A program made the position numbers and the translations under genes. From a virus, in IMG/VR virus record IMGVR_UViG_3300023179_000011, positions 1 to 64,000 of that record: a DNA stretch of 64,000 bases; one strand, 5' to 3'. Positions 8,450 through 38,675 of the stretch are shown here, piece after piece. Under the pieces are notes generated by a model, which saw nothing but the letters and a program-made list of their open reading frames with translations, was not told the DNA's origin and did not search any database. Positions within the stretch are counted from its first letter, which is position 1. Each line of letters opens with the position of its first letter.

Positions 8450-9769
8450 TTAGAACTTATCTGCAATCCGCATACGCGCGCTTTCGGCGCATTCGACAAT
8501 TGCATTACTACCGGCATCTTCCGAAGAATGATAGTCGCCGGCAATACGCATACGAACGCTTTCTGCGCACTTAACAGTTGCTACAGAGTTATCAGCTTCG
8601 AACGGCTGATAACTCGACCGCTTCGGAACAAACTCTACCGGCGCTAACAGCTCGCCGCGATACGGAAACGGCGTATTCTGCCATTCCGCCGCCCAGTTCA
8701 CCTGAATAGCACTGAGGCGACTCAGTACTAAAGGTTTAGCCGGAAACATTGCGGCTGTAAATAGCTCCTCATCGGTCGCTTCTCGTTGCGCCCGTTTTGA
8801 CGCGTGAAACCGCAAATAGTTTGCAGCTGCAGACGGCATCTGCTCAATAGCCGTTTTGATATCAATCTTTACCTCCAGCGGCTGGTCGGGAGATATCAGC
8901 GCGTCACACATTTCGTCCTCGGCAGGCTTAAGCTCGCCAAGTTCGGCATACATTTCGCGCAGTAAATCATCGACAACAAACTGGGGCATCCCCTCAGCAC
9001 TATCCAGTCCGTTCCGCGCCAGAATCTTGCCGGCCGGATTTGGTAGCGACACCGTAATGTCGCGAACAGTGCCAAACGGATTACGATCCATATCGCCCAA
9101 CACAGGCGAGAAATCTTCAATCGCAGCGTCGTGCTTGATCGCCTTGGTGACGTCCTTAGCCGATTCCTCGGTGAGCGCGGCAACATTAATGTAAGTCTTG
9201 TTGCCAAACTCCCGCAGCATGCTGTCGCGCAGCTTGCGGCGGTAAGTCTCTACCAATTCAGGCGGAGCATTCTGCACGGCCAGCGCGGTCAACTTATCCT
9301 CGTCGATCCGCATGTGGTCACGCACAGGAATGTACACCGCCGGCCAGCGGCAGGGCTCGAACGTTACCGTCTCGCCCCGCTTATCGGCATATCCGTAGTT
9401 GCAGATGTTATGAAGCATGTCACAGCCACGCTTTGCGTTGAGCCTGTGCTTCTGCTTGTTCATATTCAACTGCGCGCCAAAACCCTTGGTCGAAATTGGG
9501 GCACGAAAGTCCCACTTGCCAAGCGTTTCTAGCCATACGTCGCCGGACCGATCTGCCAGCGCCATTGCTGGAGACAGAGTCAGACCGCCATGCCTAGTTA
9601 CTTCAAGCACCAACGCCGAAGGACGAACATTATCGCCAAATCGCCTAATCGGCGAGTCAAACTTTTTGCCTTCGCCGGCCAGCCAGCTTACTGCTACGAG
9701 GTCTTCGCAGCGCGCCGCTACCCGATCGAAAGCCGCGATAATCGTTGCCTGTGTCTTCGCGATATCCAC
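8450..9769 (-). CDS. hypothetical protein
   Basis: 439 aa ORF (GTG start, AGGAG upstream); no recognised motif. Confidence 0.7.
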   Translation of the reverse strand: MDIAKTQATIIAAFDRVAARCEDLVAVSWLAGEGKKFDSPIRRFGDNVRPSALVLEVTRHGGLTLSPAMALADRSGDVWLETLGKWDFRAPISTKGFGAQLNMNKQKHRLNAKRGCDMLHNICNYGYADKRGETVTFEPCRWPAVYIPVRDHMRIDEDKLTALAVQNAPPELVETYRRKLRDSMLREFGNKTYINVAALTEESAKDVTKAIKHDAAIEDFSPVLGDMDRNPFGTVRDITVSLPNPAGKILARNGLDSAEGMPQFVVDDLLREMYAELGELKPAEDEMCDALISPDQPLEVKIDIKTAIEQMPSAAANYLRFHASKRAQREATDEELFTAAMFPAKPLVLSRLSAIQVNWAAEWQNTPFPYRGELLAPVEFVPKRSSYQPFEADNSVATVKCAESVRMRIAGDYHSSEDAGSNAIVECAESARMRIADKF

Positions 9770-10084
9770 TACTAACTCCTTTTCTCAAGTTACCATCCCT
9801 GACGGATTTGGATTCAAAGTGTTTCGACGAATATAAGGCCCAGTCGTTCGGTGATACGACAATTTCCTCATAGTCTCCACTTGAAGTCTTGTCATAAAAC
9901 TGAACGATGGTCCGGGTTACATCGAGAACTTCCTGTCTGCGAACAGGCCGTCCTTTGAATCGCACAACGTTACGCAAACACGCGTTCCCCCTTACAGCTT
10001 TAAAGCTGCAGTTATTAGTGCTGCCCGCGCTCAACGATAAAACGCGGTACAATAAATATGCCAGATTATGCTGAAAAATTTAGT

Positions 10085-10537
10085 TCAGCTATCTGGGTCA
10101 GGCAACACGCCGTCGAAGACGTTTAAAGAGCCGTCGTCTTCGTCAGAAAAGAAGTCGCCAGAGTTCACGGACAATTTTGGCGACGCTGGTGTTTTAATCT
10201 CGGGCGGGGTTTCCAAATGAACCGGATCAATACCTAGATAACCAGTGTCGTCAGGCTCTAGGCTGTCTGTGGATATGTCGAAGAGCGGCATATTGCCCCA
10301 CGGCGTCAACAAATGCCTGAACGGCGGTTTAGATATGTTTAACCGCACGCCGGCAAAGCTGAACACGCTCACGTCTTTGTTGATGAGTTCTTTTAATCGC
10401 GCGGTTAATTTTTCTAACTCGTCAAACTCCTCTACTTTGAAATCACCCTCGGGGCTAAGGATGACAGCATAGTAGTGCCCCGGAGACTCAGCGCCGTCTG
10501 GGGTAATTTTCGGTTCTGTTGCTGGCGCGTCGTCCAT
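10085..10537 (-). CDS. hypothetical acidic protein
   Basis: 150 aa colinear ORF. Confidence 0.6.
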   Translation of the reverse strand: MDDAPATEPKITPDGAESPGHYYAVILSPEGDFKVEEFDELEKLTARLKELINKDVSVFSFAGVRLNISKPPFRHLLTPWGNMPLFDISTDSLEPDDTGYLGIDPVHLETPPEIKTPASPKLSVNSGDFFSDEDDGSLNVFDGVLPDPDS

Positions 10538-10538
10538 A

Positions 10539-11180
10539 TCAGTCTCTCATGTCTAGCGGATCTTTACCGTTAAACCCAGCCATCAGACCAGCCTTGTATA
10601 TGCTCGGCGGGATGAGGTGTGAGTGCGCTGTACTGACTCGGCGGGCAACAGCCGGCCCGTTGAACTGCGGTTCTACATAAACAACAAACTTGTTAGACAT
10701 AACACCCGCAACGTGCACTTCTAACGTCTGACCGGTTCGTGACGTCGGGTCAGGTATCAGAACGGTCTGCATAAACGAACTGGCAAAAACATGCGTGTGC
10801 TGATTCGAGTATGCGATACCGCCAAGAAACTCGAAGCACTCTTCTTTTCGGCGGTGGTCGATGCAGTATAGCCGCTTGTCCCAGTTAACCGCCTGCGGCC
10901 GATTGGGAGCGGGCATAACGCCGAACCCAAAAAAAAATCTTTCTTTGTCCCGCGCAAGATCGACAAAAAACGGCCGTAGATCTTTTGACTCGGCTGGAAA
11001 CCGCGCGTCGAACTCTATTACCGGGTCGCGGTCGAAGCCGCCGTGCGTAAACAACAACGCGCCGGTAAACAAAACAAGCGGGTGCTCGCGTCGGCTAAAG
11101 GCGTCTGCGCACGACAACGGCGCAATCGAGTCAGCGCCGATAACCTCGTCAATTTGAACAAACGTATCCGGCCGTTTCAT
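10539..11180 (-). CDS. hypothetical protein
   Basis: 213 aa colinear ORF. Confidence 0.65.
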   Translation of the reverse strand: MKRPDTFVQIDEVIGADSIAPLSCADAFSRREHPLVLFTGALLFTHGGFDRDPVIEFDARFPAESKDLRPFFVDLARDKERFFFGFGVMPAPNRPQAVNWDKRLYCIDHRRKEECFEFLGGIAYSNQHTHVFASSFMQTVLIPDPTSRTGQTLEVHVAGVMSNKFVVYVEPQFNGPAVARRVSTAHSHLIPPSIYKAGLMAGFNGKDPLDMRD

Positions 11181-23363: not shown

Positions 23364-26300
23364 CTACTCGTCACAAAACCAATCGACACCCAAACCCCTA
23401 GCTTTCTCGGGTTTTAGGTTTTCTCCCCAGTGGAAAAATACGTCACGACTCATGCCGAAGTGGTACGGCTCAGCTACTTCGATTTTGGTGCCGTCTAACC
23501 TGTGCGGCCAAAACGGAACACCGTCAATCATGCACGCCGGAATAACTTCTTTATACAGACGTTCAGCGTGCTCTAGCGGAGCGATTAACACAATTGCATC
23601 ATGGATCTGCAGCGCAATTTTGTAATCAATATCCGCATGCTCTTCGCGATACTTGTAGAAGTTATAAAGCGCGATTGACACGGCATCAGCAACTCCGCCC
23701 TGAATCGGAAAGTTCTGGGCTTGCCGTTCTTGCTCGCCGCGTACAGCCCTGTCTTTCGTTGGCATAAACCGACGAAAGCGGCCATACGGCCCGACCAGCC
23801 AACCCGGATCCTGCGAACGCGACCGGCACTCCGCAAGAAACGTTTTAGTTCCGGGGTACGACTGGAAGTACGCGTCGATCATCGCTTGGCACTGATCGGC
23901 TGTGACGTCGTGGCCTTCCTCTTTGCACTGTCTCGCGAGGGCTTCTGAGCCGCGGCCGTACGGAATACCGAAATTCACGTTTTTGGCTGCGACACGCAAA
24001 CCTTTTACACCAGCGTCTGCCATACCTTGTTTTGTAGGCGTGACGCCGCTGAGTCGAAATGTCTTGACCGCCTGCTGGCTGTGAATGTCGTAGTGGTCCG
24101 GGTGATCCTCTGGAAGAAGATTACGCCGGACGTGCTCGATCATATTTTTATCTTGACTCAGCCACGCGAGGACCGCCAGTTCCGCACCAGTGAGGTCCGT
24201 TTCGATCCCGACGCAACCCTTGGGTACACGCAAGATTGAACGGACGGGATGCTGGTACTTGTCTTTTCCGAGGATGCGCTTGTAGTCGTCTTCCCGGCGC
24301 GAACTGAGGTTTTGGAGCGGAGGACGAGACGAAGATGCCCGGCCGGTTTCCTTCGTTTGAAACATGTGCGTACGAACTTTACCGTCGGAGTGAACACAGC
24401 CGACAAGACCTTTTTCGTACGTGTAATTACCGTTTTCATCGAGTTCGTATTCTCCGTCTTCTGTTTCCGAGGGTTTACGCAATACAGACTGCAGCACCTG
24501 ACTAATAAACTTATAGTCACGAATTTTAGCCGCGGTCGAATTGATGTGCCCTAGGATACCCAGACTTTCTTTATCGGTACTGGGTGTCGCAGTGTCGGCA
24601 TTAACGCCACGATACGATAACTCGTTCCACAGTACAGGGCGCTTACCAGTAGTTTTGACCGGACGCAAATCAAGCGTTTGCGCGTCGTCTGGAATGGGCG
24701 GCGCGTTTGTATAGCGATCAGCAAAGTCACGACCAAACAATGCGACGGCCAACTGGGGCTGCGATTTTGGATTGAACGCCGGCCAGTTAAGTTCCGCGCG
24801 AATTTCTGCTAACAGTTGTTCTTGAGTATTCATGAACAGCGTCGTCAGTTCGTCGGCGCGGTTGCGGTCTATTTCGAGCCCTGTCATCTCCATTTCAAGA
24901 AACGCCAGAGATGCGTTATGCGCGGTCCAGTACGGCAACCAGCAGTCGTGCCCTGTGCTTGAGCGTGCAATGATGCCGTCTTTACCGTTCGTGCCGTAAA
25001 ACCGCATCATGATGCGTCGAGTGACGTCAACGTCGTATGACGCGTACGGGTGCAGAATGTGCGCAGGGCATTCGCCGTACCCGCCGACTTCGCTCGCTTT
25101 CAATTTGTTATCAGTACGGTATTTTTTCTTCCAGTGATCAAGCGGCTCCCAGTACGTCGGGGCCGCAGTAAATCGCATGGAACACTCGTCAAGGCCGTAG
25201 CGCGCGCACTCGTTGACGGCGTGATACATGAGACTCGTGTCCCATCCGCCGCGTGTTCGATCGTCGGGATCTTCGGCGGGAGCGTATTCCGCCCGCACAT
25301 CCACGCCAAAATCAAAAAGCCACGGCAAGTCAGCGCGGAAAAAGTGGCCGCCCACGCGAACGTGCCGATCCGGCGTGCTTTTAAGCAGCCGCGTTAGCAA
25401 ACGACGCGCCGCGTCCAAATTCGGTTGAAACGCTTCTGCGCCGCCCTGATGCCGCAGAACGATAGTGCGAGCCCACTTGTCTTTATTTGATATCTGAACA
25501 GTGCGCAGATACGCGCCCTCTTCTGTCGGATAGTCGCCGTGCCATTCACAGTCGATAGCGATGATATTGGAGTTAGGGTCGGGATCAGCGATCATGGCAT
25601 CAACAATCTCAGCCAACGCTTCTTCGGTGTAAACGTCGGCATGATCGACGGCTTCCTCGTCTAAAATCTCGTCGTGAATTAGCGCCTTGAATCGCCTAAT
25701 TTGTCCAACGAAATCTTCTGTCGCCTCTGGCTTGCGCACAACGAAAGCCGGGTGCATAACCGACATGGCTTTCATTGTGCGTGACGCGCCGGCAGAGTCG
25801 GGCGCCGATACATCCAAGATACGCCCGGCTAAACCTGTGACAGCGCCTGTTGTGCGCATCACCGCTTTTGTCGCCTCGTTGCCGAGACACAAAATAAACT
25901 CTGGCTGCACGATACGCAGTTCCTGTTCGAGAAGAATTGCGCAGTTCTTGATCCACGCCGCCGGCACAGCTGTGATCTCCATCGGCGGAGCAAACTTGCA
26001 GGCAAACGTGACGTACCAGTCTTCGTACATCTCGGGACTGATGCCGCAATCCTCAAAGATATCGGCCAGCGCGAGCATCGCCGGCCCGGCGGTCGCGTTG
26101 AGGCTTTCCATTTCGTAGTAGCCGGGGAGCTTGCCAACTACCATCACCTTCGCTTTGCGCCAAGGACCGTAAGTCTCTACTGCGGCGCCGCGTTTCCCCC
26201 AACGATGCCCGGGAAGAAACGGTACCGGAATAAGTTCTTTAGACGACTTGTGCGAAATCGGTAGATGAAAGTCTGGACGATAAAGCGCGTTCCGATACAG

Positions 26301-26525
26301 GTTGGTCAGATGCGTACCAACCGGAACGTTTTTCTTTTTCTTTGCGGCCGTCTCGTCAATTTCGTCGCCGAGCGCTACGGCATGCGCAATAAAATCTGGC
26401 CCTGCGGGCGGCATACCCGGTTCCGTAAGCGGAATGAACGGGTATGCCGCTGCAGTAAAATCTTCCGTATTCGGGTCATACAGCGTCTGCGTGAGACGAT
26501 GCGTGAGCGAAATACCCTGTGTCAT
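23364..26525 (-). CDS. polA: family A DNA polymerase with N-terminal uracil-DNA-glycosylase-like domain
   Basis: UDG-like: VVGKLPG, QELRIVQPEFILCLG, HPAF. 3'-5' exonuclease: AIDCE, HFFRAD, YASYDVD. Polymerase: TGRASSSRPPLQN, ETDLTGAE (motif A), RVAAKNVNFGIPYG (motif B), LQIHDAIV (motif C). Confidence 0.95.
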   Translation of the reverse strand: MTQGISLTHRLTQTLYDPNTEDFTAAAYPFIPLTEPGMPPAGPDFIAHAVALGDEIDETAAKKKKNVPVGTHLTNLYRNALYRPDFHLPISHKSSKELIPVPFLPGHRWGKRGAAVETYGPWRKAKVMVVGKLPGYYEMESLNATAGPAMLALADIFEDCGISPEMYEDWYVTFACKFAPPMEITAVPAAWIKNCAILLEQELRIVQPEFILCLGNEATKAVMRTTGAVTGLAGRILDVSAPDSAGASRTMKAMSVMHPAFVVRKPEATEDFVGQIRRFKALIHDEILDEEAVDHADVYTEEALAEIVDAMIADPDPNSNIIAIDCEWHGDYPTEEGAYLRTVQISNKDKWARTIVLRHQGGAEAFQPNLDAARRLLTRLLKSTPDRHVRVGGHFFRADLPWLFDFGVDVRAEYAPAEDPDDRTRGGWDTSLMYHAVNECARYGLDECSMRFTAAPTYWEPLDHWKKKYRTDNKLKASEVGGYGECPAHILHPYASYDVDVTRRIMMRFYGTNGKDGIIARSSTGHDCWLPYWTAHNASLAFLEMEMTGLEIDRNRADELTTLFMNTQEQLLAEIRAELNWPAFNPKSQPQLAVALFGRDFADRYTNAPPIPDDAQTLDLRPVKTTGKRPVLWNELSYRGVNADTATPSTDKESLGILGHINSTAAKIRDYKFISQVLQSVLRKPSETEDGEYELDENGNYTYEKGLVGCVHSDGKVRTHMFQTKETGRASSSRPPLQNLSSRREDDYKRILGKDKYQHPVRSILRVPKGCVGIETDLTGAELAVLAWLSQDKNMIEHVRRNLLPEDHPDHYDIHSQQAVKTFRLSGVTPTKQGMADAGVKGLRVAAKNVNFGIPYGRGSEALARQCKEEGHDVTADQCQAMIDAYFQSYPGTKTFLAECRSRSQDPGWLVGPYGRFRRFMPTKDRAVRGEQERQAQNFPIQGGVADAVSIALYNFYKYREEHADIDYKIALQIHDAIVLIAPLEHAERLYKEVIPACMIDGVPFWPHRLDGTKIEVAEPYHFGMSRDVFFHWGENLKPEKARGLGVDWFCDE

Positions 26526-26531
26526 AACGCC

Positions 26532-27617
26532 TCATAACAAAAATGAAAGATCTGCCGTAACATCAACAGCGTCAGCGGCAGATGACAACATCTCAAACAA
26601 TTCCGCGCGCGAATAGTCAGCCGGATCACGATCGTCCGGGAGAATAACCGGAACGACGTTAACGTTTCTTTGGCAAAGCGCCGCCACAACATGCTCAAGC
26701 TCGGTCTGCGCGTCGTGATCAAGAACGACAAACACAGGCTTGTTTGCCCATGTCGTCGCGATCGTGTTGCACTGCCACGCAGATAACGTCTTACCAAAAA
26801 TGCAGACGCCTGCAACTCCCAAGCGCCACACGCTCGGTACGCCCTCGACAACAACGGCAACAGGTTGTTCGGCCGCATTATCGTAGTTGTAAAGGACCTG
26901 ACTCTTGCGCATGCCGTTGTAGTATTTGACGGTGTTTTTGCCCTCTCCAACTACACGACCCTGCCAGCCAACCAGCTGGCCGTGAAAATGCACAGGAATG
27001 TAAATTCGCCCGTGCATGATCCGGTGCTTATCTAGCCGCGGCTTTACACACACGCCGATTTTGAACATGTCGGCAAGTTCACGAATATTTGTAAATCCGC
27101 GAGACGCCAAATATTCGACAGCCGGATGATACTCAGGCAGCGAATCAATCGGTAGAATCTCGCCGGGTGGTTCAATCGTTTCGTGTGCGGTGTCGAGCGG
27201 CACTGACCGAATCGGCGTCCGCATAAGGATCCGCCGGCCTGCGCCAAAAACCATATCTTCAAACTGCTCTAGCCGGCCGGGCTTATCAAGACAGTTTTCG
27301 TTGTAGCACACGACGAGATGCGTGTTTGCCCGACGACCGTTGCGAATGTCTGCTCCGTACCGGTGATTTACCCACAGACGATTTCGCTGATCACGACAAA
27401 ACGGACAACACACGCAGTAATACTCACCCCAACTGCCACGATAAGTAGACTTGCCGCGGCGAAGGGGATCATCAAATTGTTCGACCTGCGCGGGCACACC
27501 TTCGTTTGCGATATTCACTTCGCCGAATTTGTGCGCGAGCAGGCCATACAGTACGGGATTCAGGGGATTTGAACTTGGCGCTTTTGAAACCGCCATTTTC
27601 ATACTGACTCCTCTCAC
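26532..27617 (-). CDS. dnaG: DnaG-type DNA primase
   Basis: Zn finger CPFCRD...CYNENC; GRIYIP...GWQGR; LYNYD; VVVEG; VLDHD; DPAD. The start may be the downstream MAVSK. Confidence 0.9.
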   Translation of the reverse strand: MRGVSMKMAVSKAPSSNPLNPVLYGLLAHKFGEVNIANEGVPAQVEQFDDPLRRGKSTYRGSWGEYYCVCCPFCRDQRNRLWVNHRYGADIRNGRRANTHLVVCYNENCLDKPGRLEQFEDMVFGAGRRILMRTPIRSVPLDTAHETIEPPGEILPIDSLPEYHPAVEYLASRGFTNIRELADMFKIGVCVKPRLDKHRIMHGRIYIPVHFHGQLVGWQGRVVGEGKNTVKYYNGMRKSQVLYNYDNAAEQPVAVVVEGVPSVWRLGVAGVCIFGKTLSAWQCNTIATTWANKPVFVVLDHDAQTELEHVVAALCQRNVNVVPVILPDDRDPADYSRAELFEMLSSAADAVDVTADLSFLL

Positions 27618-29275
27618 GACATCATGTCTTCAGCAAATGTGTCTACCGGCATAATCCGCCGGGGTGTGGAGCGCGGACGCGTGAGCGCCTGCGCTTCTTC
27701 TGGCGTAACGGGAGCAATGTCACCACGCTGGATGATTCGCTTAGCGGCTTCAGATGCAGTGTACTCGTCATTCACAAGACGAATCTCCGCGACTCTGTCG
27801 TCGATTTTAATTAGCCCCTTGAGATTATCCGCCCGAAGATACCGCAACTTAGACCAATAAATCGTCGATACATGGCACGACTCGTCTCGCGCGTTGACGC
27901 AGAGACACGCGTGAAGGTTCTCCGCGAATGACTTTGAACCGGATGCGTCGGCGTGCGAAACGTACCGATATGACGGAATGTTCTTGACCTCACCTTGCGC
28001 AAGCTGATGCGCCAGCATGATCACCGCACCTGTAGGCACAGCAATCCGTGCACGCAACTGATCAACAGCGTTTTTGATCGGCCGCGCCAACGACTCTGCG
28101 TACTTTGTCTTGGCGTTTGCGTTCATTTCACGCTCCACCATGACACCGCAGTAATCAATGGCAACAAAACCAATTTCCATTCCACGCTCGCGCGCTAACT
28201 GCTCAAGCGCGATAACAATCTCCGCTACGCCGCCCGCGCCGCGGTTGCCGGTCTTTTCGTTTTGCGAAAAGTCCAGATACATAAAGTTATTATTGAACCA
28301 CGAACTGGCCGCGACCCAGCGTTCACGCTCGCCAAACATTACTTCGCCGTTTCTGTTTACAGGCAACTCTCGATCGTAGTCTTTGAGGTTTTCAGCTGTA
28401 GACAGTTCCGACCAGAAGTCGCGACCGACGGCGAATAACGAACGGTCAATCTGCGCCGCGGCAGACCAAAACGTCGGATTCATTTTTTCGGCCGGATCTT
28501 CGTAGCCGATAAACACGGACAGCTTGTTGGGCGAGTGTGCGGCGTACTGTTGCGCCATACGCACAGCCGTAACTGCCAGAAGTGTTGTCTTACCGCCGCC
28601 ATACGGCCCTAAGACGCCAATAATGTCACCTTGCCGAAAGCCCTGCAGATACTCATCAATAAACGGAAGCGTCGTGGGCACAGCAACTGGCGGGAGCGCA
28701 ATGGGCTGCCCGATTTCAGGCATCATGGCCGCATTCTCGAAGCTCTTGCCAAGAGCGTCGACCGATTGCGCTTTCCTTGTCCACTGCGCTAACTGCGCCT
28801 CTAAATTATCTGGCGCGCCGCCAAACGTATTCAATACCGCTTGCGCCTCGCCTTTGATCATCCGCTCCCGAATAAATCGCCGAACAATATCCTCGATGTA
28901 TGACTTTTCAGCGCGGGCTTCGACTTCCGCGAGCGGCGCAACACTGAAGCACTCGTCGACAAATCGCACCAGCGCGTCAACGGCATCGTTGCTTAGTGCG
29001 ATCGCCGCTGTCCCTGCAACAGCGTTATCACGCCACGCGAGCAGTCGGGTGGTGAGCATGTCGGCAGTAAGTGCACCAAACTGCTCACTAAGTTCTTTCA
29101 TTGCCGCGAACAGGTAATAAAACGGCAGCTCGTCGATCGATTGTCCAAAATGACCGTGTGAAAGCCCGACACGCAACGAGTCACGCAGCAGCGCCGGATA
29201 CCGCAAAAGACCAGAAATCATTGTGCCGATCTCTGGCGCGGTTACCGCGTCAACTGTTTTTGGCTTTTCATCCAT
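27614..29275 (-). CDS. dnaB: DnaB-like replicative helicase
   Basis: GDIIGVLGPYGGGKTT; IGYEDP; VAIDY; MLAHQL; KLRY. Start placed at MDEKPK. Confidence 0.88.
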   Translation of the reverse strand: MDEKPKTVDAVTAPEIGTMISGLLRYPALLRDSLRVGLSHGHFGQSIDELPFYYLFAAMKELSEQFGALTADMLTTRLLAWRDNAVAGTAAIALSNDAVDALVRFVDECFSVAPLAEVEARAEKSYIEDIVRRFIRERMIKGEAQAVLNTFGGAPDNLEAQLAQWTRKAQSVDALGKSFENAAMMPEIGQPIALPPVAVPTTLPFIDEYLQGFRQGDIIGVLGPYGGGKTTLLAVTAVRMAQQYAAHSPNKLSVFIGYEDPAEKMNPTFWSAAAQIDRSLFAVGRDFWSELSTAENLKDYDRELPVNRNGEVMFGERERWVAASSWFNNNFMYLDFSQNEKTGNRGAGGVAEIVIALEQLARERGMEIGFVAIDYCGVMVEREMNANAKTKYAESLARPIKNAVDQLRARIAVPTGAVIMLAHQLAQGEVKNIPSYRYVSHADASGSKSFAENLHACLCVNARDESCHVSTIYWSKLRYLRADNLKGLIKIDDRVAEIRLVNDEYTASEAAKRIIQRGDIAPVTPEEAQALTRPRSTPRRIMPVDTFAEDMMS

Positions 29276-29279
29276 GAAT

Positions 29280-30050
29280 TCACTCGGCATCGTAATTTCT
29301 CCAATGCTGCCGTATCGCGACAACGCCTGATTTAATTTCGTTCTCTATCCACCATTTGTATTCTGGATGCGCTGCTATTACAGCATCATACGACCGTTGC
29401 TGCGCTTCATAATCGAGCGCAGCTTTCCACAAATAGCGTTCTACCGCTTTTTCACAGTTACGGCTGGCCGCAAACGCGTTTCGAAAAAACGGCGTTGCTG
29501 TAACGTAACTTTCGTCGCAGAGTACGTACAGCTCCTGCGCGACCGTAGGCATTTTGTATATCGCAGTTGTCGCTATTCGTAGCTGCAGGGTCTCTGCCGC
29601 CACGTGAAAACGATTTTTGATTATCCGCGGCATATGCGTCACATAATCGCGGTAAATCTCGGCAGATTTGGCGCTGTATAAAACAGACGGCCGCATCTCC
29701 GTTAAACGCTGCTGCCCCGTCGAAATACGCTCTGTAGCGAGCGCAGAGAAGTGCGCATAAACCCAACCACCAAGATCAGCGCCTGCGCGCTCAGCGGCGC
29801 GTAGAATTTTGCCCCAAACTGGCGTGTGTTTTACGCCAAAGTTATCTTTACCGCCGTCCCACATCGGGCGTCTTTTAATATGCGCCCGAGCTTCCCAATC
29901 GTGAACACGTTCGTTCAGATGGATGTACTGGTATCGGATGTAGGCAGCTTTTTGCGCCGGCGTAAGAAATCGATACCAGTCGACTGACAAAAGATCTGAA
30001 TCATTCCCCGCTGTCAGTTCCGCGGGATCGCCAAGAGCGCTGCGCGTCAT
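29280..30050 (-). CDS. hypothetical replication-operon protein
   Basis: Colinear ORF between the SF2 helicase and DnaB; start placed at MTRSALG. Confidence 0.65.
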   Translation of the reverse strand: MTRSALGDPAELTAGNDSDLLSVDWYRFLTPAQKAAYIRYQYIHLNERVHDWEARAHIKRRPMWDGGKDNFGVKHTPVWGKILRAAERAGADLGGWVYAHFSALATERISTGQQRLTEMRPSVLYSAKSAEIYRDYVTHMPRIIKNRFHVAAETLQLRIATTAIYKMPTVAQELYVLCDESYVTATPFFRNAFAASRNCEKAVERYLWKAALDYEAQQRSYDAVIAAHPEYKWWIENEIKSGVVAIRQHWRNYDAE

Positions 30051-32556
30051 GCCAATTCTGCTCCCATCCGAGGAGTTTATAGCTGTTTCGTCGACCAAGA
30101 CTCTTCCTGTAGAAGATCGGGTCAAACGTGTCCATGCAATCCAGTACTTCACCAAATTCTTTTCGTGTGCCGTCTGGAGCCGTGTAAATTCGGCTTACAC
30201 GCCCCGGGCCTTGCACATCGACAATATCGCTATCCCGGTCATCGGCGCGGACAAGAACGTTTAACTGTTCAAAGTCAACGCCGGTGGCCCATACATCCGT
30301 GGCGATTACGCGCTTGAGTTGTCCAGACTCGAACTGTGAACGCATGTCGTATTTCTGTATGTCCGTGAGCGGTTTGTAGTCGGCGGGCAATAAGCCCTTT
30401 TTCCGATACCCCGCGCAGTCATACGGCGACATGTTTCCATAGACGAGACTGAAATCAGGCAATTGCGCGCCGAGATGAACAGCGTGTTCAATCGTCTCTA
30501 CGAGGATCAGAATCTGATGCGATTCTGGATATCCCCGCACGGCTTCGGCGATGATACGATTCCGCTCGTGGTTTGTCCAGATGCCGTATCGCTTGCGCGC
30601 CACGCGGTTGCTGTAGCGTTCTGCGGGATTCGACCGCAAGCGCATTGGCAGCCAATTGACCCGAACCGGCACGACAAGCCCAAGCTCGACGGCCTGCTGA
30701 TAAGTCAACTCAAACACCATAGGACCGAACATAGGCTCAAGCACAGCATGAGCGTTGTCCATCCGCGCATATGGCGTTGCGCTCAGACCGAAGTTGCGGC
30801 TCGTCCGATAACGCGCCGCCAACGCCGTAGAAAAGTTCAGCGTGGCAAGCTGGTGAACTTCGTCGGCAAACAAGAAATCAGCGTCACCGTCGGAGTGCGC
30901 CAAACTGCCGGCGGTGATTACGGTCACGCGTTCCCACTGTTTCCATCCGTCGCCTACGCGGCCCACTTTCGGCAAAAGCCGTTTCAGGCTGCGCACGATT
31001 CGGTCGGCCACGTCTACTGATTTGGTGACTACGTGTATTTTGGCTGTCGGAAATAGCAGGGCGGCGGCGCCAATCAGGGTTGTGTTGTGCGTGACGGTGT
31101 AATCGCGCGTCAAATACAGCCCGTCATCGGCACTAACGGAAATACAGGCACACGGCGTCACTCCGGCAGGCCGAATATCGACAATCGCTTTGGTTTTGCC
31201 CTGCTTCGTGTGCCTGCGCCACAACCGCGCTTTCCGCGGCAGGCGAAACGGATTGACCGACAAATTGACCGCCACACGCCAATAAGTCTTTCCGGGTTGC
31301 GCAGCGTACTCTTGGGCTTTTACGCGCGTAACGCCGCCGAGTGAACGCACTAGGTCGCACACATCTTCAGCCAGTTGCTTTGACGCCACAGCGCCAAACT
31401 CTACATGGTAGGCGTTTTTGCGCACAGTGCCGTCCGTGTCCATCAAACCACGCAACAACGCCAACCGCTGCTCAAAACTACCGTACTTGTACATGTGCGG
31501 AATGTGCTTGTCTTGAGCCAGCACGCACACGCCAAGTTTTTCAAGCTCTGTTTTTAGCGGGTTTTCTCGTTTTTTGACGCCGTGCGTGATTCTCCAGTCG
31601 TAGGCTGCGGCATAAACAGGATAAAGTCCGAGCGGCGCCACAGCTTGTTCAACAAAAGCAACCATTTCCAAATCACTCGTGCTAAACATGACGCTGTTTT
31701 GCGTCAAACCACCGTCACCGAGAAGCACGCCCAACAAATAAGGATCAACTGGCAAGTCGCGCTGTTCAAAATGCACCGGTTCAGTCACGGGAACAAACCA
31801 TTTACGCTCGCCGCGGTTGTTGACCAGATCGCCGATCAGCGACCCGATAGCGACCGTGCGGTATCCCGTTTCGCGGTACTTGTGAGCTTTAGTCTGAACG
31901 TTCCAAAGATGTTCTTTGCAGCACTGCACTACAGAACCGTCCGAAAATTCAACCTCGACAATCTCTTTCACGCCCTGCAGATAAACGCCTGTCACTTCCG
32001 TGGGGTAACCGTTTGCTCCGATGACGTAATCGCCGGGTTGCAACGCGCCGAGCGGTACGGGACCAATCGGCGTGTAAACGGTTTCAGTTAAAGGTTGCGC
32101 TTTCCCGAACCCCGTGACTGCTTTAATAATGCCGCACGGAACACGCGAAATTGTGCGCAAACATTCTTCCTGTCGAGCACGAAACGTAATACGCCCGGCT
32201 AGATTTTCCCACTGTGGCGTGTAACATTCTGGACGTTTACGCAAACCAGACCGATCAATAAGCACTGTCGGGCACCCGAGCTTTTTGAGGCGGTTCACCA
32301 TGCGGGCTAAATACCCGCTAAGAACAATCACATGTCCGTTCTCGACGCGGTGCAACTTGTATTCTTTCGTTTGAAAGAACATTCGCTGCCCTGTAATTGG
32401 GTCTCGGCGCGCCTGCCCGTGAACCTGCTCAATATGTGAGTACCGTAAATCGTGCGTCAGGCGCTTGATCAGCGCATCATTTAAAGGCGCGTTATCCGCG
32501 CCAGTAATCGTTAAAACGTTTCCAACGCGTGTAATGGTTACGGGTTGGGCAATCAT
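30001..32556 (-). CDS. superfamily 2 helicase (UvsW/XPB-like) with intein
   Basis: After splicing: KAVTGFGK-TTL (Walker A); FADEVH (DExH); GLSATP; IATDVWATGVD; QGPGRVSR. Start is MIAQP at 32556, one base after the upstream TAG. Confidence 0.92.
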   Translation of the reverse strand: MIAQPVTITRVGNVLTITGADNAPLNDALIKRLTHDLRYSHIEQVHGQARRDPITGQRMFFQTKEYKLHRVENGHVIVLSGYLARMVNRLKKLGCPTVLIDRSGLRKRPECYTPQWENLAGRITFRARQEECLRTISRVPCGIIKAVTGFGKAQPLTETVYTPIGPVPLGALQPGDYVIGANGYPTEVTGVYLQGVKEIVEVEFSDGSVVQCCKEHLWNVQTKAHKYRETGYRTVAIGSLIGDLVNNRGERKWFVPVTEPVHFEQRDLPVDPYLLGVLLGDGGLTQNSVMFSTSDLEMVAFVEQAVAPLGLYPVYAAAYDWRITHGVKKRENPLKTELEKLGVCVLAQDKHIPHMYKYGSFEQRLALLRGLMDTDGTVRKNAYHVEFGAVASKQLAEDVCDLVRSLGGVTRVKAQEYAAQPGKTYWRVAVNLSVNPFRLPRKARLWRRHTKQGKTKAIVDIRPAGVTPCACISVSADDGLYLTRDYTVTHNTTLIGAAALLFPTAKIHVVTKSVDVADRIVRSLKRLLPKVGRVGDGWKQWERVTVITAGSLAHSDGDADFLFADEVHQLATLNFSTALAARYRTSRNFGLSATPYARMDNAHAVLEPMFGPMVFELTYQQAVELGLVVPVRVNWLPMRLRSNPAERYSNRVARKRYGIWTNHERNRIIAEAVRGYPESHQILILVETIEHAVHLGAQLPDFSLVYGNMSPYDCAGYRKKGLLPADYKPLTDIQKYDMRSQFESGQLKRVIATDVWATGVDFEQLNVLVRADDRDSDIVDVQGPGRVSRIYTAPDGTRKEFGEVLDCMDTFDPIFYRKSLGRRNSYKLLGWEQNWHDAQRSWRSRGTDSGE
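31084..32100 (-). mobile_element. class 3-type intein (339 aa) with LAGLIDADG endonuclease
   Basis: Starts with Ala (AQPLTETVYTP); block B CCKEHLW (Trp); block F PCACISV (Cys); block G VTHN (Thr); +1 Thr; LGVLLGDG and LRGLMDTDG. Confidence 0.92.
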
Positions 32557-32557
32557 A

Positions 32558-33055
32558 CTAGCCGTCGCTTCCCGGTCCTGAGACGGGCTCGACGGAAAGG
32601 ACTTCAAATGTCCCATATTTTTCCTGCGCGTTGTTGAACGGAGAGAAACCCCGATATTTTCCAACTAAAGTAAGTAAGTGCACAAAATCGCCCAACGGAA
32701 TCTCCTCTGGAAGCACCGCCGACACTATCACAATGTCGCCGGGTCGAAAAGCCTCGTGCAGCGCATAGTGGCTACGAATCTGAGTGTCCGGCTGCTGTGT
32801 CAAAATTGTGCGGCGCCAGTCGTTTCGCGGCTCGCCCATAACAATAGGGCACCAGTCGATTTTTTTAACGTCACTGTGATGACGATTAGCGATCTTGGCC
32901 GCATATCGCATACATGACAACCACGCCGACGGTAGAAACATGACGCGCTGACTTGGATCACGGTCGAAGCAAAAAATGACTTGGCCGTGACGTCGCTTTT
33001 TTGCAGCACCAAGGCACACACGGTTGAACCGGATTTTGATAGTTATTTCTTGCAT
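32558..33055 (-). CDS. minimal RAMP (Cas7-like RRM fold) protein
   Basis: ITIKIRFNRVCLG (beta1+G); FDRDPSQRVMFLPSAWLSCMRYAA (FxRD...helix1); HEAFRPGDIVIVSAVL; LLTLVGKYRGFSPF...KYGTFEV (eroded G-loop plus last strand). Confidence 0.6.
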   Translation of the reverse strand: MQEITIKIRFNRVCLGAAKKRRHGQVIFCFDRDPSQRVMFLPSAWLSCMRYAAKIANRHHSDVKKIDWCPIVMGEPRNDWRRTILTQQPDTQIRSHYALHEAFRPGDIVIVSAVLPEEIPLGDFVHLLTLVGKYRGFSPFNNAQEKYGTFEVLSVEPVSGPGSDG

Positions 33056-33056
33056 G

Positions 33057-33998
33057 TCACTGCTGCTTCTTGCTCATATGCTCTGCATACGCTGCGCGTT
33101 CCGCCGGTGTTTTAAAAAACAAGTTTGGCGCAAACAAACCGTCTTTTGCGCCCCGCCGGTTTTCTAACCCGTCGAGCCAGTTGTAGCGTAAATAACGTAC
33201 AAACGCTTGCGACGCCCGCAGATCACCTTTCACGCCGCCACGAACGGCTTTGTGAATACGGTACAAAAAGTTAGCAGGATTTTGTAGATCAATTTCTGCC
33301 AGATCGACTGTTTTCCAAGCACGTAAAACATTTGCACAACGCAGTTCTCGACTCTTGTGCAATAAACTTGTCGGCGTTGATACGTTTTCTTGCACTTGCG
33401 GCGTCAAACCTAAAAACAATTCAAGTTTTGCCGCGCGGTCTGGCGACTTGCGGTCAACATACCAGCGCGGGTCAACAATTGTAGCGAGTAGTTGCGCGGC
33501 TACTTCTTCTGACAACGTTGGTATAAATGTCAACGCTTTGTGCGCCGGGTGCATCCGAAAGTAAGCTTTTGCTGCGTCATCAAAAACAAAGTTAGTTCGC
33601 TGCATACGGCCAAGAATGGCATACGTTGGGTAATCATGCGCTGAGAGCTTGTGCCAACCTCCGGCGGCAGGAGATACATCAACACCGCGCATATGACGTA
33701 AAACAATTTGAGGATCGCTGATATCTTCTGCGGCGTGTAGTACATTTGGCCCGGCTATTTCGACGCGATTAATCTCGTTTTTGTAGTGTCGCAAATATAG
33801 TGCTGAAATAAGCTCAGCGTTCTGCGGCAAGCCTAGAACACGAACCTGAACGCCCATACCGTGCAGCACTGGAGAAAGTAAAAACGAATCTAACACCTGA
33901 TCTGAATTTGTAGCCGGTCCGATGCCGACAGAAAACCAGATCCGACCGTCAGTGTGGGTGTGGAGTTTGATTACGTTTTCATCAGCTACGTTGTACAT
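33057..33998 (-). CDS. IS110 transposase/Nop-domain-like protein, catalytic residues apparently lost
   Basis: HPAHKALTFIPTLSEEVAAQLLATIVDPRWY...KLELFLGLTP matches the IS110 C-terminal/Nop signature; the C-terminal KGDLRASQAFVRYLRYNW helix also fits. The N-terminal part has an RNase-H-like strand/helix order without the DEDD set. Confidence 0.65.
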   Translation of the reverse strand: MYNVADENVIKLHTHTDGRIWFSVGIGPATNSDQVLDSFLLSPVLHGMGVQVRVLGLPQNAELISALYLRHYKNEINRVEIAGPNVLHAAEDISDPQIVLRHMRGVDVSPAAGGWHKLSAHDYPTYAILGRMQRTNFVFDDAAKAYFRMHPAHKALTFIPTLSEEVAAQLLATIVDPRWYVDRKSPDRAAKLELFLGLTPQVQENVSTPTSLLHKSRELRCANVLRAWKTVDLAEIDLQNPANFLYRIHKAVRGGVKGDLRASQAFVRYLRYNWLDGLENRRGAKDGLFAPNLFFKTPAERAAYAEHMSKKQQ

Positions 33999-36135
33999 GC
34001 CGCAACTCCGGGGCCTCTAGTTCGATTGCAGATTCAAACAAATGCGAAAGATTGATTGCATGCGTGACAAGCAAGCATTGCAACCCTTTCGCGGTAGACA
34101 GCTCGCGTAATTTTTCAAGAACAGGCGCTAAAGCCTGAATACGCGGCTGATCCAAAGACGCAGTCGGCTCATCCAATGCAAGGAGGCCGATTTCTTCGGC
34201 AAACATGGCGTTGACGGCGACTCGAAACGCAAGAGCCAAGACTGTTTTTTGTCCAATTGACAGTCGTTGTGCGACCTGTCTTCGTCCGTCAAAGAACTCT
34301 GCGATAAATGTAGGTGTTCCATCCGTAGCAACCTTAATAACAAAGTTTACACGAAACACCTGCAACAATTCGTTGATCGCTGATTCGAGCCGCTGCAAAT
34401 TACGTTGCGCAACGAGTCGTGGAGCGTTTTTCAACGCTTCGCGCGTTGTTTCCGCCAAACCAACCCAGCGCCGCAACTTACCGGCAAGCACCTCTTGCGC
34501 CCGCACTTCTGCGCACTGCTCATCAAACCGCTTCTTTTCGAACAGGATCTGCGCCCGCTGGTCTGTCAAGCCGGCGCGCGTTTTTAATTGTTCCTGTAAC
34601 TGCTGCAGCCTCGTTTGCGCAAGATGCGCGTCAGCGTGCGTTATTGAAATCTCGGCTAATTCTTCTTCGAGCTGCTTCTTGCGAGTTTTAAGCGCTTCGA
34701 TTGCGCCGGTAACCTGCGCTCGTTCTTCACGGGCTTTTTGCGCTAACGGTTCAATCTCTTTTTTGACTCGTTGAAATTCTTCGTAGTCCACAACCGCTTG
34801 CTGTAGCTCGTCTTCGCTCAGATCCGGCGGTTTGACAGCCAGTAAATCTTTTTCAGCCGCGTCAAGCTGCTGTTCTTTTGCGTCGCGCGATTTCTGCCGC
34901 TTTTCCCAGTCGGCCCACACACCCTCTTTAAACGTCTGCTGATTAGCGGCTTTTTTCCATTCCACCAAATCTTCTTCCATTGTCACGAGGTCCAGCTTGT
35001 ATTGCTCGACCTGCGCGGCCAACCGCGAAGACGGCGTATGGCACGTGGGGCACTCAGCGCAACCGTCGGCCGAAAACATATCAATAAATCGTTTGATTTC
35101 TTTGATACGCTGTTCACGCGAATGCTGGTCACGGCGCATTTCTTCGGCAGTAGGCAATCCCGGTTTTTCGGGCTGCGGGTCTTTTTCCCGCTCTGTCGCC
35201 AGCTGTGCTCGTGTCGTTTGAAAGTTCTCTTTTGCCTTCGCTACGCTCTTGTAACTCGCCCAGTGGCCCAGCGCGACACGCGCGGCCGCATGCGACTCTT
35301 CTTGCCCGTCAGCAGCTTTCGTCAACGCTAGCAGATCCTCGTCGTACTGCGCGGAGGAGTTTACAAGCGTTTCCAATTTCTGCTGCTGTTGCTCAAGCTG
35401 TTTCTCCAGTTTTGACAACTCGCCAGCGCCGCGTTCTCTAGCGTCCCACTGCTGAATTGTTGTCTGCGCGGCGCGCATGAGCGTCAGAATGTTATCTGGA
35501 TTTGGCAACTGCGCGATCTGTTCTTCCAGTGCGTGAGCGAGCTTTGCGGCGTCATTAGACTGCGCCTCCAGCTCGTCGGCTGTGTGAACAATTTCTGGAA
35601 TGCTAAGTTTTGATAGCGCTTTGCCAATAACGTCCTGACACTTGTCAGCACGCGCCGTGTTAAACAGCCGCTGAAAAAACTTATCAGTATCGGTTTGATT
35701 GTCGTCGATAAACGAAAAAATCTCGGTCTGCGCGACGATAATAAACCGACTGATAAACTTAGCGTCAACGCCTAGCAGTTTTTCAATGCCGGCCGTCACG
35801 CTTTTATCGCCACGCCCTATTTCCTTGCCGTCCACAAGCAGTGTGGACTGCTCTTTCTCCGGTAATAAGTGGCGCGTCACAACGGCAATATGCCCGTTAT
35901 GCTCAAACTCTAGCGTAGCGTACGCAGGTTCACCTTCGCGAGCGTATTGCGAAATGTTGTCAGATTTCACACCAAAATTTGGGTTCTCGCCGGTAAGCAA
36001 CCATCGAATCGCGCCAAACAAACTGCTCTTACCAGAACCGTTTTCACCGAGAATTGCCACCAGCCCGCGCGTGAACTCACACACTCGATAGCGGTGATGT
36101 ACCCAATTCTTTACTTTCAATTTCAAGAGCTGCAT
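33982..36135 (-). CDS. sbcC: SbcC/Rad50-like SMC ATPase
   Basis: ILGENGSGKSS; long coiled coil; CPTC Zn hook; LSIGQK; LALDEPTASLD; LVTH. Confidence 0.93.
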   Translation of the reverse strand: MQLLKLKVKNWVHHRYRVCEFTRGLVAILGENGSGKSSLFGAIRWLLTGENPNFGVKSDNISQYAREGEPAYATLEFEHNGHIAVVTRHLLPEKEQSTLLVDGKEIGRGDKSVTAGIEKLLGVDAKFISRFIIVAQTEIFSFIDDNQTDTDKFFQRLFNTARADKCQDVIGKALSKLSIPEIVHTADELEAQSNDAAKLAHALEEQIAQLPNPDNILTLMRAAQTTIQQWDARERGAGELSKLEKQLEQQQQKLETLVNSSAQYDEDLLALTKAADGQEESHAAARVALGHWASYKSVAKAKENFQTTRAQLATEREKDPQPEKPGLPTAEEMRRDQHSREQRIKEIKRFIDMFSADGCAECPTCHTPSSRLAAQVEQYKLDLVTMEEDLVEWKKAANQQTFKEGVWADWEKRQKSRDAKEQQLDAAEKDLLAVKPPDLSEDELQQAVVDYEEFQRVKKEIEPLAQKAREERAQVTGAIEALKTRKKQLEEELAEISITHADAHLAQTRLQQLQEQLKTRAGLTDQRAQILFEKKRFDEQCAEVRAQEVLAGKLRRWVGLAETTREALKNAPRLVAQRNLQRLESAINELLQVFRVNFVIKVATDGTPTFIAEFFDGRRQVAQRLSIGQKTVLALAFRVAVNAMFAEEIGLLALDEPTASLDQPRIQALAPVLEKLRELSTAKGLQCLLVTHAINLSHLFESAIELEAPELRHVQRS

Positions 36136-37255
36136 CGTTCGATTCTCCGGTCATGTATTTTGAAAACTGTACATCAAGCTCTTTGTTTGCATCATCCGCC
36201 GCAAGCAATGCCGCGGCCAACTTATACGCATCTGTACCTTCACCCATCAAATCGCCCAGCGCTGACAGCAAATCGTTCTTGGCGGCATCACGTGTGCCGG
36301 CGCGCCTGTCACTGTCATCTTTACTTGTCAGAGCTTCACAAAACACGTGCGCTGACTCGCCAAGCGCTGTGACAAGGCGGATATATGCGTCGGGTAGTTG
36401 CTTGTTAAACTTGATCCTCACAATTGGTTTAGAAATTTCAGCCGGTAGGTCGGCAAATTCGCACACATCTTTGATATCGCGTTCAAACTGACCGGCGCAG
36501 AGGCTATCCAACAGATCCTGCTCGCGCACGGTGTAGTTAATAAACCGGCGTGTTTTAAGCGGAACAGGAGCAAACTCAAAGCCCAAAACACCGTCAGTCC
36601 GTTGCCCGATAACAAAGAAAAATTTTGACGGGTCTTCGCCGCAGTCCTGCATGCAGATAGAGCCGGGCGACAACATCCGAATTGGTTGTCCGTGCGCGTT
36701 GACACTTTCTACGGTCTTAGTGACGTGAAAGTCGCCGGCCAGCACAGTTTGAACATAGTGCACGTCGGTTAGCTCACACTCGGTGCGACCGACGTTGCCC
36801 ATAAAGTCTTTCCAGACCTGATGCGCGATTAAGATATCTGTGTCAACCGGAACTTCTTTAAACGCGGCTTGAATCTCGCCGCGCGGAAGCCAGTCAAGTC
36901 CGTATACGCGCGCACCGTTAATATTTACGGTTTGCTTGTGAATATGATTGGACCATTTGTGCACGCTTAACCACGGCGCGTTTCGGTCGTACTCGTGATT
37001 GCCCTGAATGTAGTGCACAGCTAAATTTGCCGCCTGCATACGGCTCAGCCCGTTACACAGCTGAGCGATTGGGCGCGCAGAATTGCTTTTCTTTTCCAAC
37101 ACGTCGCCGCCAAGTATCAGCGGCAGATGATGCTCAATGCAGTAATCGATGATTTGATTGAAACTGTAATACGCGTCGCCATAAATACCGGGACGCGTCG
37201 ACCACGCACCATCTTCAAGGTGCAAGTCAGCAGTAAAAACAAAAAGCGGCCTCAC
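36077..37255 (-). CDS. sbcD: SbcD/Mre11-like metallophosphoesterase nuclease
   Basis: TADLHL; LGGDV; GNHE; IAHQ; LAGDFH; SPGS. Confidence 0.93.
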   Translation of the reverse strand: MRPLFVFTADLHLEDGAWSTRPGIYGDAYYSFNQIIDYCIEHHLPLILGGDVLEKKSNSARPIAQLCNGLSRMQAANLAVHYIQGNHEYDRNAPWLSVHKWSNHIHKQTVNINGARVYGLDWLPRGEIQAAFKEVPVDTDILIAHQVWKDFMGNVGRTECELTDVHYVQTVLAGDFHVTKTVESVNAHGQPIRMLSPGSICMQDCGEDPSKFFFVIGQRTDGVLGFEFAPVPLKTRRFINYTVREQDLLDSLCAGQFERDIKDVCEFADLPAEISKPIVRIKFNKQLPDAYIRLVTALGESAHVFCEALTSKDDSDRRAGTRDAAKNDLLSALGDLMGEGTDAYKLAAALLAADDANKELDVQFSKYMTGESNDAALEIESKELGTSPLSSV

Positions 37256-37264
37256 GCACTGCTC

Positions 37265-37882
37265 CTAGTCTTCGTCGTCGTTTTCATAATCAGCGTCTTC
37301 ATCGTCTTCAAAATACTCTTCCTCGTCGTATTGTTTGCTGTTGTTTTTCGTGTTGTGCGGCAACTGCCAATACGGATTAACAGGCACGTCGGCCATGCCG
37401 GCGCCGTAATCAAACGGTTTGAACAGTTTCATTAAAGTTGCAACATAGGCGCCGATTATTTTTGGCAACTTGTTTACGTCAATAGATTGAATAGTGTGCG
37501 CCATTTCTTTCCACGACGCCGGTTCACCGCTAAAAAACCCGTCGTCTTTCTTTTTACCCTTTGGCGTTTTTGTTACAACTTTAAAAAACGACAGCGTAAA
37601 CAACTCGGCTAGGTCGTCGGTAGTCGGCACTGGGGCGCTGAACGACTTGTGCTTCAGTCTGTGCTTTTTTTGCAGCGCCATCAACTCGCTATCAAAATCG
37701 GCCTGCATCTGCTGCAAAGCCTTGGCCAACCGAGAGGCAGCCACGACCTCTTTCACGCCAAGATTAGCCGGGTTCATCAGATCGAGAACCGACCACAGTA
37801 GATGGTAGTCGCGCCGCATTGCCGCAACGTAAGTCTGAATAAACTGGCGCTCTGTTTTAGATATGTTATTCAGATCAAACAT
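37265..37882 (-). CDS. hypothetical protein
   Basis: 205 aa colinear ORF with acidic tail. Confidence 0.65.
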   Translation of the reverse strand: MFDLNNISKTERQFIQTYVAAMRRDYHLLWSVLDLMNPANLGVKEVVAASRLAKALQQMQADFDSELMALQKKHRLKHKSFSAPVPTTDDLAELFTLSFFKVVTKTPKGKKKDDGFFSGEPASWKEMAHTIQSIDVNKLPKIIGAYVATLMKLFKPFDYGAGMADVPVNPYWQLPHNTKNNSKQYDEEEYFEDDEDADYENDDED

Positions 37883-38431: not shown

Positions 38432-38502
38432 ATGCCCGACTAGGATTCGAACCTAGACAAAGAGAATCAAAATCTCTTGTGCTACCGTTACACCATCGGG
38501 CA
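38432..38502 (-). tRNA. tRNA-Gln (anticodon UUG), no encoded CCA
   Basis: Acceptor TGCCCGA/TCGGGCA (U1-A72); D stem GTG/CAC; anticodon stem AGAGA/TCTCT with loop TTTTGAT; T arm CTAGG-TTCGAAT-CCTAG. Confidence 0.95.
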
Positions 38503-38675
38503 ACCGCGCATTGAATCCTTTCATTTACGATCTTCTGGCGCCCACCTCGGATACCGTCATGACAAGCGTCGCCAGCTCGTGGTTATGACCCACTCACGGT
38601 TTGGGTGCCGGACCGTCAACATGCGTAACGGCTTCAGGCGCGATAACCGGGGCACCGGCATGCCCGCCGGGATAC
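38503..38675 (-). ncRNA. candidate structured ncRNA directly upstream of tRNA-Gln
   Basis: No RBS-bearing ORF. Stems CCGGC/GCCGG, GGTGCC/GGCACC, CCGTTA/TGACGG, ACCGT/ACGGT, GTGG/CCAC and GAGC/GCTT. Confidence 0.4.

Follow-up and report, generated by a model that had tools for sequence, protein, structure and literature searches.

A co-translated pair of predicted Nop-type and RAMP-type proteins in the replication operon of large uncultured phages

The virus contig IMGVR_UViG_3300023179_000011 (199,845 bp, 53.6% GC, estimated to be about 98% complete) encodes, between the genes for a Rad50-like ATPase and a superfamily 2 (SF2) helicase, two adjoining proteins that we call X and Y; coordinates refer to the window, the stretch formed by positions 1 to 64,000 of this record. 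X is predicted to combine a RuvC-like N-domain with a Nop-type helical domain, and Y to be a minimal RAMP of the Cas7/Csm3 type. The two great scaffolds by which proteins hold guide RNA are the Nop type (TIGR-Tas, IS110, box C/D) and the RAMP type (CRISPR class 1); to our knowledge, no report describes them working side by side. An earlier annotation of this locus (the original prediction) proposed that the two proteins form an RNA-guided DNA-recognition module or, alternatively, that they are domesticated nucleic-acid-binding accessory factors. The latter fits the evidence best: with a probability of about one half, X and Y are domesticated accessory factors that act on recombination or replication intermediates.

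Neither the sequence of X nor those of its family members match any model in Pfam, PHROGs or NCBIfam, and sequence-profile searches of the PDB gave nothing meaningful for X or Y. The AlphaFold (AF2) model of X, computed from an alignment of 83 diverse sequences, has a predicted local distance difference test score (pLDDT) of 95.9 and a predicted template modelling score (pTM) of 0.93. Its best full-length structural match by VIA is TasR (9mty_B, Z 10.5, 233 residues aligned), covering model residues 8-309; the Nop domain of TasH matches residues 128-308 at Z 8.2-8.4, and IS621 is found at Z 7.7-7.9 with about 225 aligned residues. The ten leading Foldseek matches are chains of IS621, TasR and ISCro4 (probability 0.93-0.98, E about 1e-2), except for a low-probability Csm6 at rank 7. 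All remaining VIA matches cover the N-domain only (RuvX, YqgF, RuvC, pox resolvase and the YqgF-like domain of Spt6, with Z at most 7.3), which has an RNase H-like fold as seen in RuvX, YqgF and RuvC (Z about 5-6.8).

A link to IS110 is also found by profile comparison. The X family was compared by hhalign with 12 IS110 transposases taken from genomes, using 20 block shuffles and a reversed template as controls. Residues 138-274 align with the Transposase_20 region at a probability of 83.7% (P 8e-6), including the DPRW/GD-x-RF and GLTP motifs, and when the C-domains are used alone the probability is 91.4% (P 9e-7); the score of 48 compares with at most 34.8 for the 20 block-shuffled templates and 14 for the reversed one. 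The N-domain has no similarity to the DEDD_Tnp profile (PF01548; hhalign P 0.6), and in a sequence search with PF02371 (Transposase_20) one of the 83 X members reaches E 0.16. For a partly helical protein, the Z-scores of the modelled structure (8-10.5) are good, not overwhelming; the fold call gains strength from matches that span the full length, from top ranks specific to the family and from hhalign, which does not depend on the model. As far as the model can tell, the Nop-like assignment of the original prediction thus holds in Foldseek, VIA and hhalign, with TasR, TasH and IS110 as the closest relatives. The family DUF4123, suggested for X by ESM-Atlas features (0.91), was dropped because it is matched by none of the 83 members in Pfam and gains no support from the fold searches.

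The canonical catalytic residues of these relatives are absent from X. Across the 83 members, the only conserved acidic positions are D122, D176 and E300, none of which lies within residues 1-112; there is no DEDD tetrad, nor a conserved Ser after GLTP, where the IS110 nucleophile sits. Position 13, at the end of β1, is His in 68 of the 83 sequences and never Asp or Glu; judged by its offset in the alignment ranges, it would correspond to D11 of TasR and IS621. N60 is invariant, H116 is present in 80 of 83 sequences, and 81 have Asp or Glu at position 122. From the predicted secondary structure, H13, N60, H116 and D122 appear to sit at the positions of the RuvC tetrad by topology, and the site thus looks remodelled and conserved, not simply decayed.

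For Y, too, there is no match in Pfam, PHROGs or NCBIfam, and none of its 42 family members matches the RAMP or Cas7 models of Pfam and NCBIfam at E<=5. The AlphaFold model (42-sequence alignment, pLDDT 91.7, pTM 0.83) gives 116 Foldseek matches in the PDB at E<=1e-3, led by Csm3 (6xn3_F, 8e-7), type VII Cas7, Cmr4 and Cas7-11. VIA, which is independent of Foldseek, returns Csm at Z 12.2 (148 residues aligned), Cmr-beta at 11.6, a Csm3 crystal structure at 10.8 and type IV Csf2 at 9.5-9.6; its first 28 rows are CRISPR RAMPs without exception. In BFVD, Y matches a viral 'Cas system-associated RAMP' (2.8e-7), and ESM-Atlas features provide a weak RAMP lead only (0.75). The call of Y as a RAMP is therefore upheld at the level of predicted structure. 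The model consists of an RRM-like core, a basic β-hairpin insertion at residues 18-29 (KKRRHG) and a C-terminal Gly-rich loop, G132-Y-x-G-x-S-P, in which G132, Y134, G136, S138 and P139 are invariant. Both proteins are basic, with an isoelectric point of 9.3 for X and 9.2 for Y.

The invariant residues of Y further include E3, R82, H100 and E101; R82, H100, E101 and S138 are found in 42 of 42 sequences. The catalytic Asp for target-RNA cleavage, D32/33 in Csm3 and D26 in Cmr4, has possible counterparts in D31 and D33; these are present in the clade of this phage, and distant members have Pro, Ser, Ala, Gln, Thr or Asn in their place. The original description of both proteins as apparently catalytically dead therefore stands for X, in the sense that canonical residues are absent, while for Y it is left unsettled by D31/D33 within the clade and by the invariant H100 and E101.

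X and Y are real genes, as seen from their homologues, their kept gene order and their high-confidence folds. A database clustered at 90% identity holds 326 homologues of X and 230 of Y, nearly all of them metagenomic, with carrier contigs that reach about 205 kb; a profile search with X yields 1016 clusters at 50% identity, of which 593 have E<=1e-30, all with a length of about 300 residues. Among 49 IMG/VR loci encoding X, the series SbcD-SbcC-X-Y-helicase is found intact in 48, and eleven of these 48 share just 25-33% identity with X; in the count for SbcD by itself, it lies upstream of SbcC in 47 of the 49. SbcC-X-Y is also found in two further Logan contigs. The adjacency that the original prediction had proposed to look for in relatives is thus conserved down to 25% identity.

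Y is absent from at least two lineages that have X (L039 and L078, the latter with the helicase directly after X), and the two proteins are therefore not an obligate pair. In L039, the sole IMG/VR locus without Y, three tandem paralogous open reading frames of about 110-118 residues and a metallophosphoesterase lie between X and the helicase (8891-9917 of that locus). A few loci (L028 at 8911-10645, L024, L026 and L044) have open reading frames inserted in the gap between X and Y, 0.1-1.7 kb in length, and translational coupling of X and Y is thus common, not universal. No longer, fused forms of Y were found, which is weak evidence. From locus to locus, X and Y vary in identity together with SbcC and SbcD (r 0.95-0.98, a descriptive correlation only, as the loci are mutually related), and median identity is 76% for Y against 44-63% for SbcC, SbcD and DnaB. 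Such behaviour is that of core genes passed on vertically and not that of a mobile island.

The lineage carrying X and Y is a broad group of large (about 160-225 kb) uncultured phages, the present one being a large freshwater phage. X has no match by tblastn among 50,697 isolated phage records, and the polymerase and helicase have relatives among isolated phages at about 22-27% identity only; the sole match to X in prokaryote genomes is one contig of a metagenome-assembled genome, which looks like a mis-binned phage.

The genes for SbcD, SbcC, X, Y and the SF2 helicase all lie on the minus strand and are coupled (Table 1). Read directly from the sequence, the stop of SbcC (33982) and the ATG of X (33998) define an overlap of 17 nt, the stop of X runs into the start of Y as TGA-C-ATG (33059..33053), and the stop of Y into the start of the helicase as TAG-T-ATG (32560..32554); these junctions are exactly as originally claimed, and the identities given then for SbcC, SbcD and the SF2 helicase are borne out by Pfam and PHROGs. 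The downstream replication genes match phrog_19, phrog_47 and phrog_17 in the PHROG search, which also places a UvsX-like recombinase in the surrounding operon. With a DnaB-like helicase, a primase, a polymerase and this recombinase downstream, the block therefore belongs to a core replication and recombination operon.

Table 1. Features of the window around X and Y, with the evidence for each.
Feature	Position	Strand	Evidence and remarks
DNA polymerase, family-A-like	23364-26525		PHROG; after primase
Primase	26532-27617		PHROG; after DnaB-like helicase
p291 and DnaB-like helicase (downstream context)	27614-30155	-	PHROG; synteny
Conserved 291-aa protein (p291)	29280-30155	-	no Pfam, PHROG or PDB match
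SF2 helicase	30001-32556, if the start is the ATG after TAG-T	-	Pfam Helicase_C, ResIII
Y, 165 aa (P0002)	32558-33055	-	predicted minimal Cas7/Csm3-type RAMP
X, 313 aa (P0001)	33057-33998	-	predicted RuvC-like N-domain (about 1-112) and Nop-type helical domain (about 128-309)
SbcC/Rad50-like ATPase, 717 aa	33982-36135	-	Pfam SMC_N 1.6e-18, AAA_23, SbcC_Walker_B; phrog_77 2e-33
SbcD/Mre11-like nuclease	36077-37255	-	Pfam Metallophos E 7e-5; phrog_100, SbcD-like; leads the conserved five-gene block
Conserved 205-aa protein (p205)	37265-37882	-	no Pfam, PHROG or PDB match
tRNA-Gln	38432-38502		
Structured non-coding RNA, about 165 nt, GC-rich	38503-38668	-	directly 5' of tRNA-Gln; 1.2 kb upstream of the operon
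Group I catalytic intron	60608-61390	-	Rfam RF00028, 68.6 bits, E 2.8e-15

In sequence kinship the helicase is XPB/Rad25-like: its orthologue in L001, which is 512 residues long and has no intein, matches archaeal XPBII at 5e-8 (phmmer) and ResIII at 5.9e-8. XPBII works with a partner encoded beside its gene; the comparison with archaeal XPB-Bax1 is by analogy only, and no similarity of X or Y to Bax1 was seen. The helicase of the present phage is split by a LAGLIDADG intein of about 339 residues (approximately 153-491; Pfam LAGLIDADG_3 6.9e-10), shared with L016, L023 and L028 and lacking in close relatives such as L001; the original prediction had missed this intein. The PHROG 'terminase/primase' matches of this protein stem from the intein.

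The genome was searched over its full 199,845 bp for a source of guide RNA. Neither a CRISPR array nor a TIGR-like array, which consists of dual-repeat or stem-loop units of about 36 nt, was found by Tandem Repeats Finder (TRF), interspaced k-mers or lag autocorrelation; the periodic regions are coding repeats only, each with a period of 9 nt or a multiple of it. Matches to PF02371 (Transposase_20), PF03787 (RAMPs), PF01798 (Nop) and PF01248 (L7Ae) are likewise zero genome-wide. Within the operon, adjoining genes overlap or abut, leaving no intergenic space and thus no room for an array. The proposal of an RNA-guided module is therefore without guide-RNA evidence here. The periodic coding repeats include long collagen-like ones with periods of 9, 18 and 27 nt at genome positions 82.6-84.8 kb and 195.2-196.8 kb, outside the window; a 180-nt tandem repeat of 5.7 copies is found at genome positions 86300-87346.

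The structured non-coding RNA listed in Table 1 has several helices with compensatory changes and a likely pseudoknot, formed by a GCCGG loop and a downstream CCGGC, and matches no Rfam family. In 24 close loci, a search with a covariance model places it on the strand of the operon and upstream of it. It is missing beside tRNA-Gln in some closer loci and is absent from five distant genomes with X and Y, two of them at least 98% complete; because of this absence, it was rejected as a family-wide guide partner. Its 3' end would come from RNase P cleavage of the tRNA.

X thus resembles TasR and IS110, and Y resembles Csm3, without either being a member of these groups, since arrays, sequence-model matches and, for X, catalytic residues are wanting. 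With TasR of the TIGR-Tas systems (PDB 9mty; Faure et al. 2025, PMC12045711), X shares the Nop-type domain, a size of about 300 residues and its occurrence in phages. It differs in having no TIGR array, either adjacent or anywhere in the genome, no match to Pfam Nop or to any other Pfam model, a RAMP as its partner, and a His at the position that would align with the catalytic D11 of TaTasR. TasR clades with an inactive RuvC domain have been described (Faure et al. 2025, PMC12045711) and are the nearest precedent for X. The IS110 bridge recombinases (IS621, 8wt6/8wt9; ISCro4, 9t56) are similar to X at VIA Z 6.5-7.9 over about 225-234 residues; in contrast to them, X lacks the DEDD residues, the conserved Ser after GLTP and profile similarity of its N-domain to DEDD_Tnp, and it is encoded as a single copy at a fixed syntenic place in an operon, with no upstream space for a bridge RNA and no element ends.

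Over its whole chain, Y superposes on type III Cas7 (Csm3/Cmr4), type VII Cas7, Csf2 and the domains of Cas7-11 (Z 9.5-12.2, with 137-159 of its 165 residues aligned). It is smaller than type III Cas7, with 165 residues against about 200-300, and is not matched by RAMP hidden Markov models; neither cas genes nor a CRISPR array accompany it, its neighbours being SbcCD, helicases, primase and polymerase, and the family as a whole does not keep the Asp at the Csm3-like position. Its nearest precedent is array-less RAMP derivatives of the HRAMP type, which in the summary given by PMC8730458 (of Makarova et al. 2019) are highly diverged, nuclease-associated Cas7-type proteins of haloarchaea whose predicted function differs from CRISPR immunity. 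HRAMP differs from X-Y in being archaeal, in combining Cas5 with Cas7 and in being regarded as a defence module; it is not known to have a Nop- or Tas-like partner and does not belong to a viral replication operon.

Taken at the level of the predicted folds, X and Y have most likely each arisen, by domestication and strong divergence, from a scaffold that in other systems holds guide RNA. As domesticated accessory factors, they would be non-nucleolytic, nucleic-acid-binding subunits that partner SbcCD (Mre11-Rad50) and the XPB-like SF2 helicase; both the binding and the partnership are what we infer from fold and gene neighbourhood. Y would grip or coat a single strand, be it RNA, single-stranded DNA or the RNA strand of a hybrid, by means of its RAMP face and basic hairpin, and X would bind structured or branched nucleic acid. 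Together they could recognise or stabilise R-loops, primers, ends or branches, which the nuclease and helicase would then process in recombination-dependent replication, with no part played by a dedicated guide array. Several points weigh against this interpretation. All characterised relatives use these two scaffolds to bind guide RNA, and by analogy an RNA partner encoded elsewhere or derived from transcripts is possible; H13/N60/H116/D122 of X and H100/E101 of Y could be non-canonical active sites, which makes 'non-nucleolytic' an assumption; and the structures of both proteins are predictions.

The RNA-guided alternative, in which X and/or Y load a guide that does not come from an array and with it steer SbcCD and the helicase to defined sequences, for instance in origins, in competing elements or in the DNA of the host, might draw this guide from trans-encoded small RNA, from processed transcripts of the phage or its host, or from the RNA of an origin or primer. 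It gains from the fact that the characterised close structural relatives (TasR, TasH, IS621, Csm3, Cmr4, Csf2) are all RNA-guided effector subunits, from the presence of an ATP-driven nuclease and helicase next door as plausible effectors, and from the covariation-supported RNA that the clade carries 1.2 kb upstream on the same strand. This RNA, however, is missing from the five distant genomes and some closer loci, the TRF, k-mer and autocorrelation scans of the genome are empty of CRISPR- and TIGR-like arrays, the operon is closely packed, an L7Ae-like k-turn binder was not found in the genome scan, at least two lineages carry X without Y, and the distribution is that of a core gene and not patchy; we therefore consider this alternative unlikely. 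An array-less, RNA-dependent module, in which the Nop protein and the RAMP jointly hold an RNA, such as a transcript from an origin or primer or a trans-encoded small RNA, that directs or licenses Mre11-Rad50 and the XPB-like helicase on phage DNA, we would also not expect to be the case. If true, replication and recombination, not defence, would be under RNA-guided or RNA-templated control, and the module might link two unrelated guide-RNA scaffolds in evolution.

That one or both of the proteins are non-canonical enzymes, for example X as a structure-specific nuclease (H13/N60/H116/D122) or Y as an RNase (H100/E101) acting on primers, R-loops or branched DNA, is quite unlikely. The four best-conserved polar residues of the X N-domain do seem to follow the topology of the RuvC tetrad, at the end of β1, at the start of the helix after β4 and before the last helix, and R82, H100, E101 and S138 are invariant in all 42 Y sequences; but a His/Asn/His/Asp set cannot bind two Mg2+ in the DEDD fashion, and activity is not known for any relative that has a site of this kind. 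Phages encode Cas-like and repeat-like decoys, and X and Y might be imagined as mimics of this kind, with Y (as a Cas7 mimic) and X (as a Tas/IS110 mimic) sequestering host CRISPR RNA or tigRNA, or poisoning effector assembly. The absence of the relatives' canonical catalytic residues, not settled for Y, would suit such a role. It is at odds with a fixed place in the core replication operon, with vertical inheritance down to 25-30% identity and with very high conservation, where anti-defence genes are typically patchy and fast-evolving, and also with the spread over about 1,000 clusters at 50% identity, presumably infecting hosts with diverse defence systems; a decoy is thus very improbable.

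A literature search found no paper on a Nop/RAMP pairing or its operon context, in agreement with the earlier statement that the pairing is undescribed. The Nop-domain mining that defined TIGR-Tas used profiles (PMC12045711), and those profiles do not detect X; as the X family is invisible to Pfam, it was probably missed by this mining. What emerges is a conserved, co-translated pair of predicted Nop-type and RAMP-type proteins, array-less and set inside the Mre11-Rad50, helicase and replisome operon of widespread phages. Should X and Y be accessory factors, they would show clearly that guide-RNA scaffolds can be exapted for DNA metabolism; should they depend on a guide, they would constitute a guide-dependent device for replication and recombination. 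Either outcome bears on the origin and recycling of RNA-guided systems.

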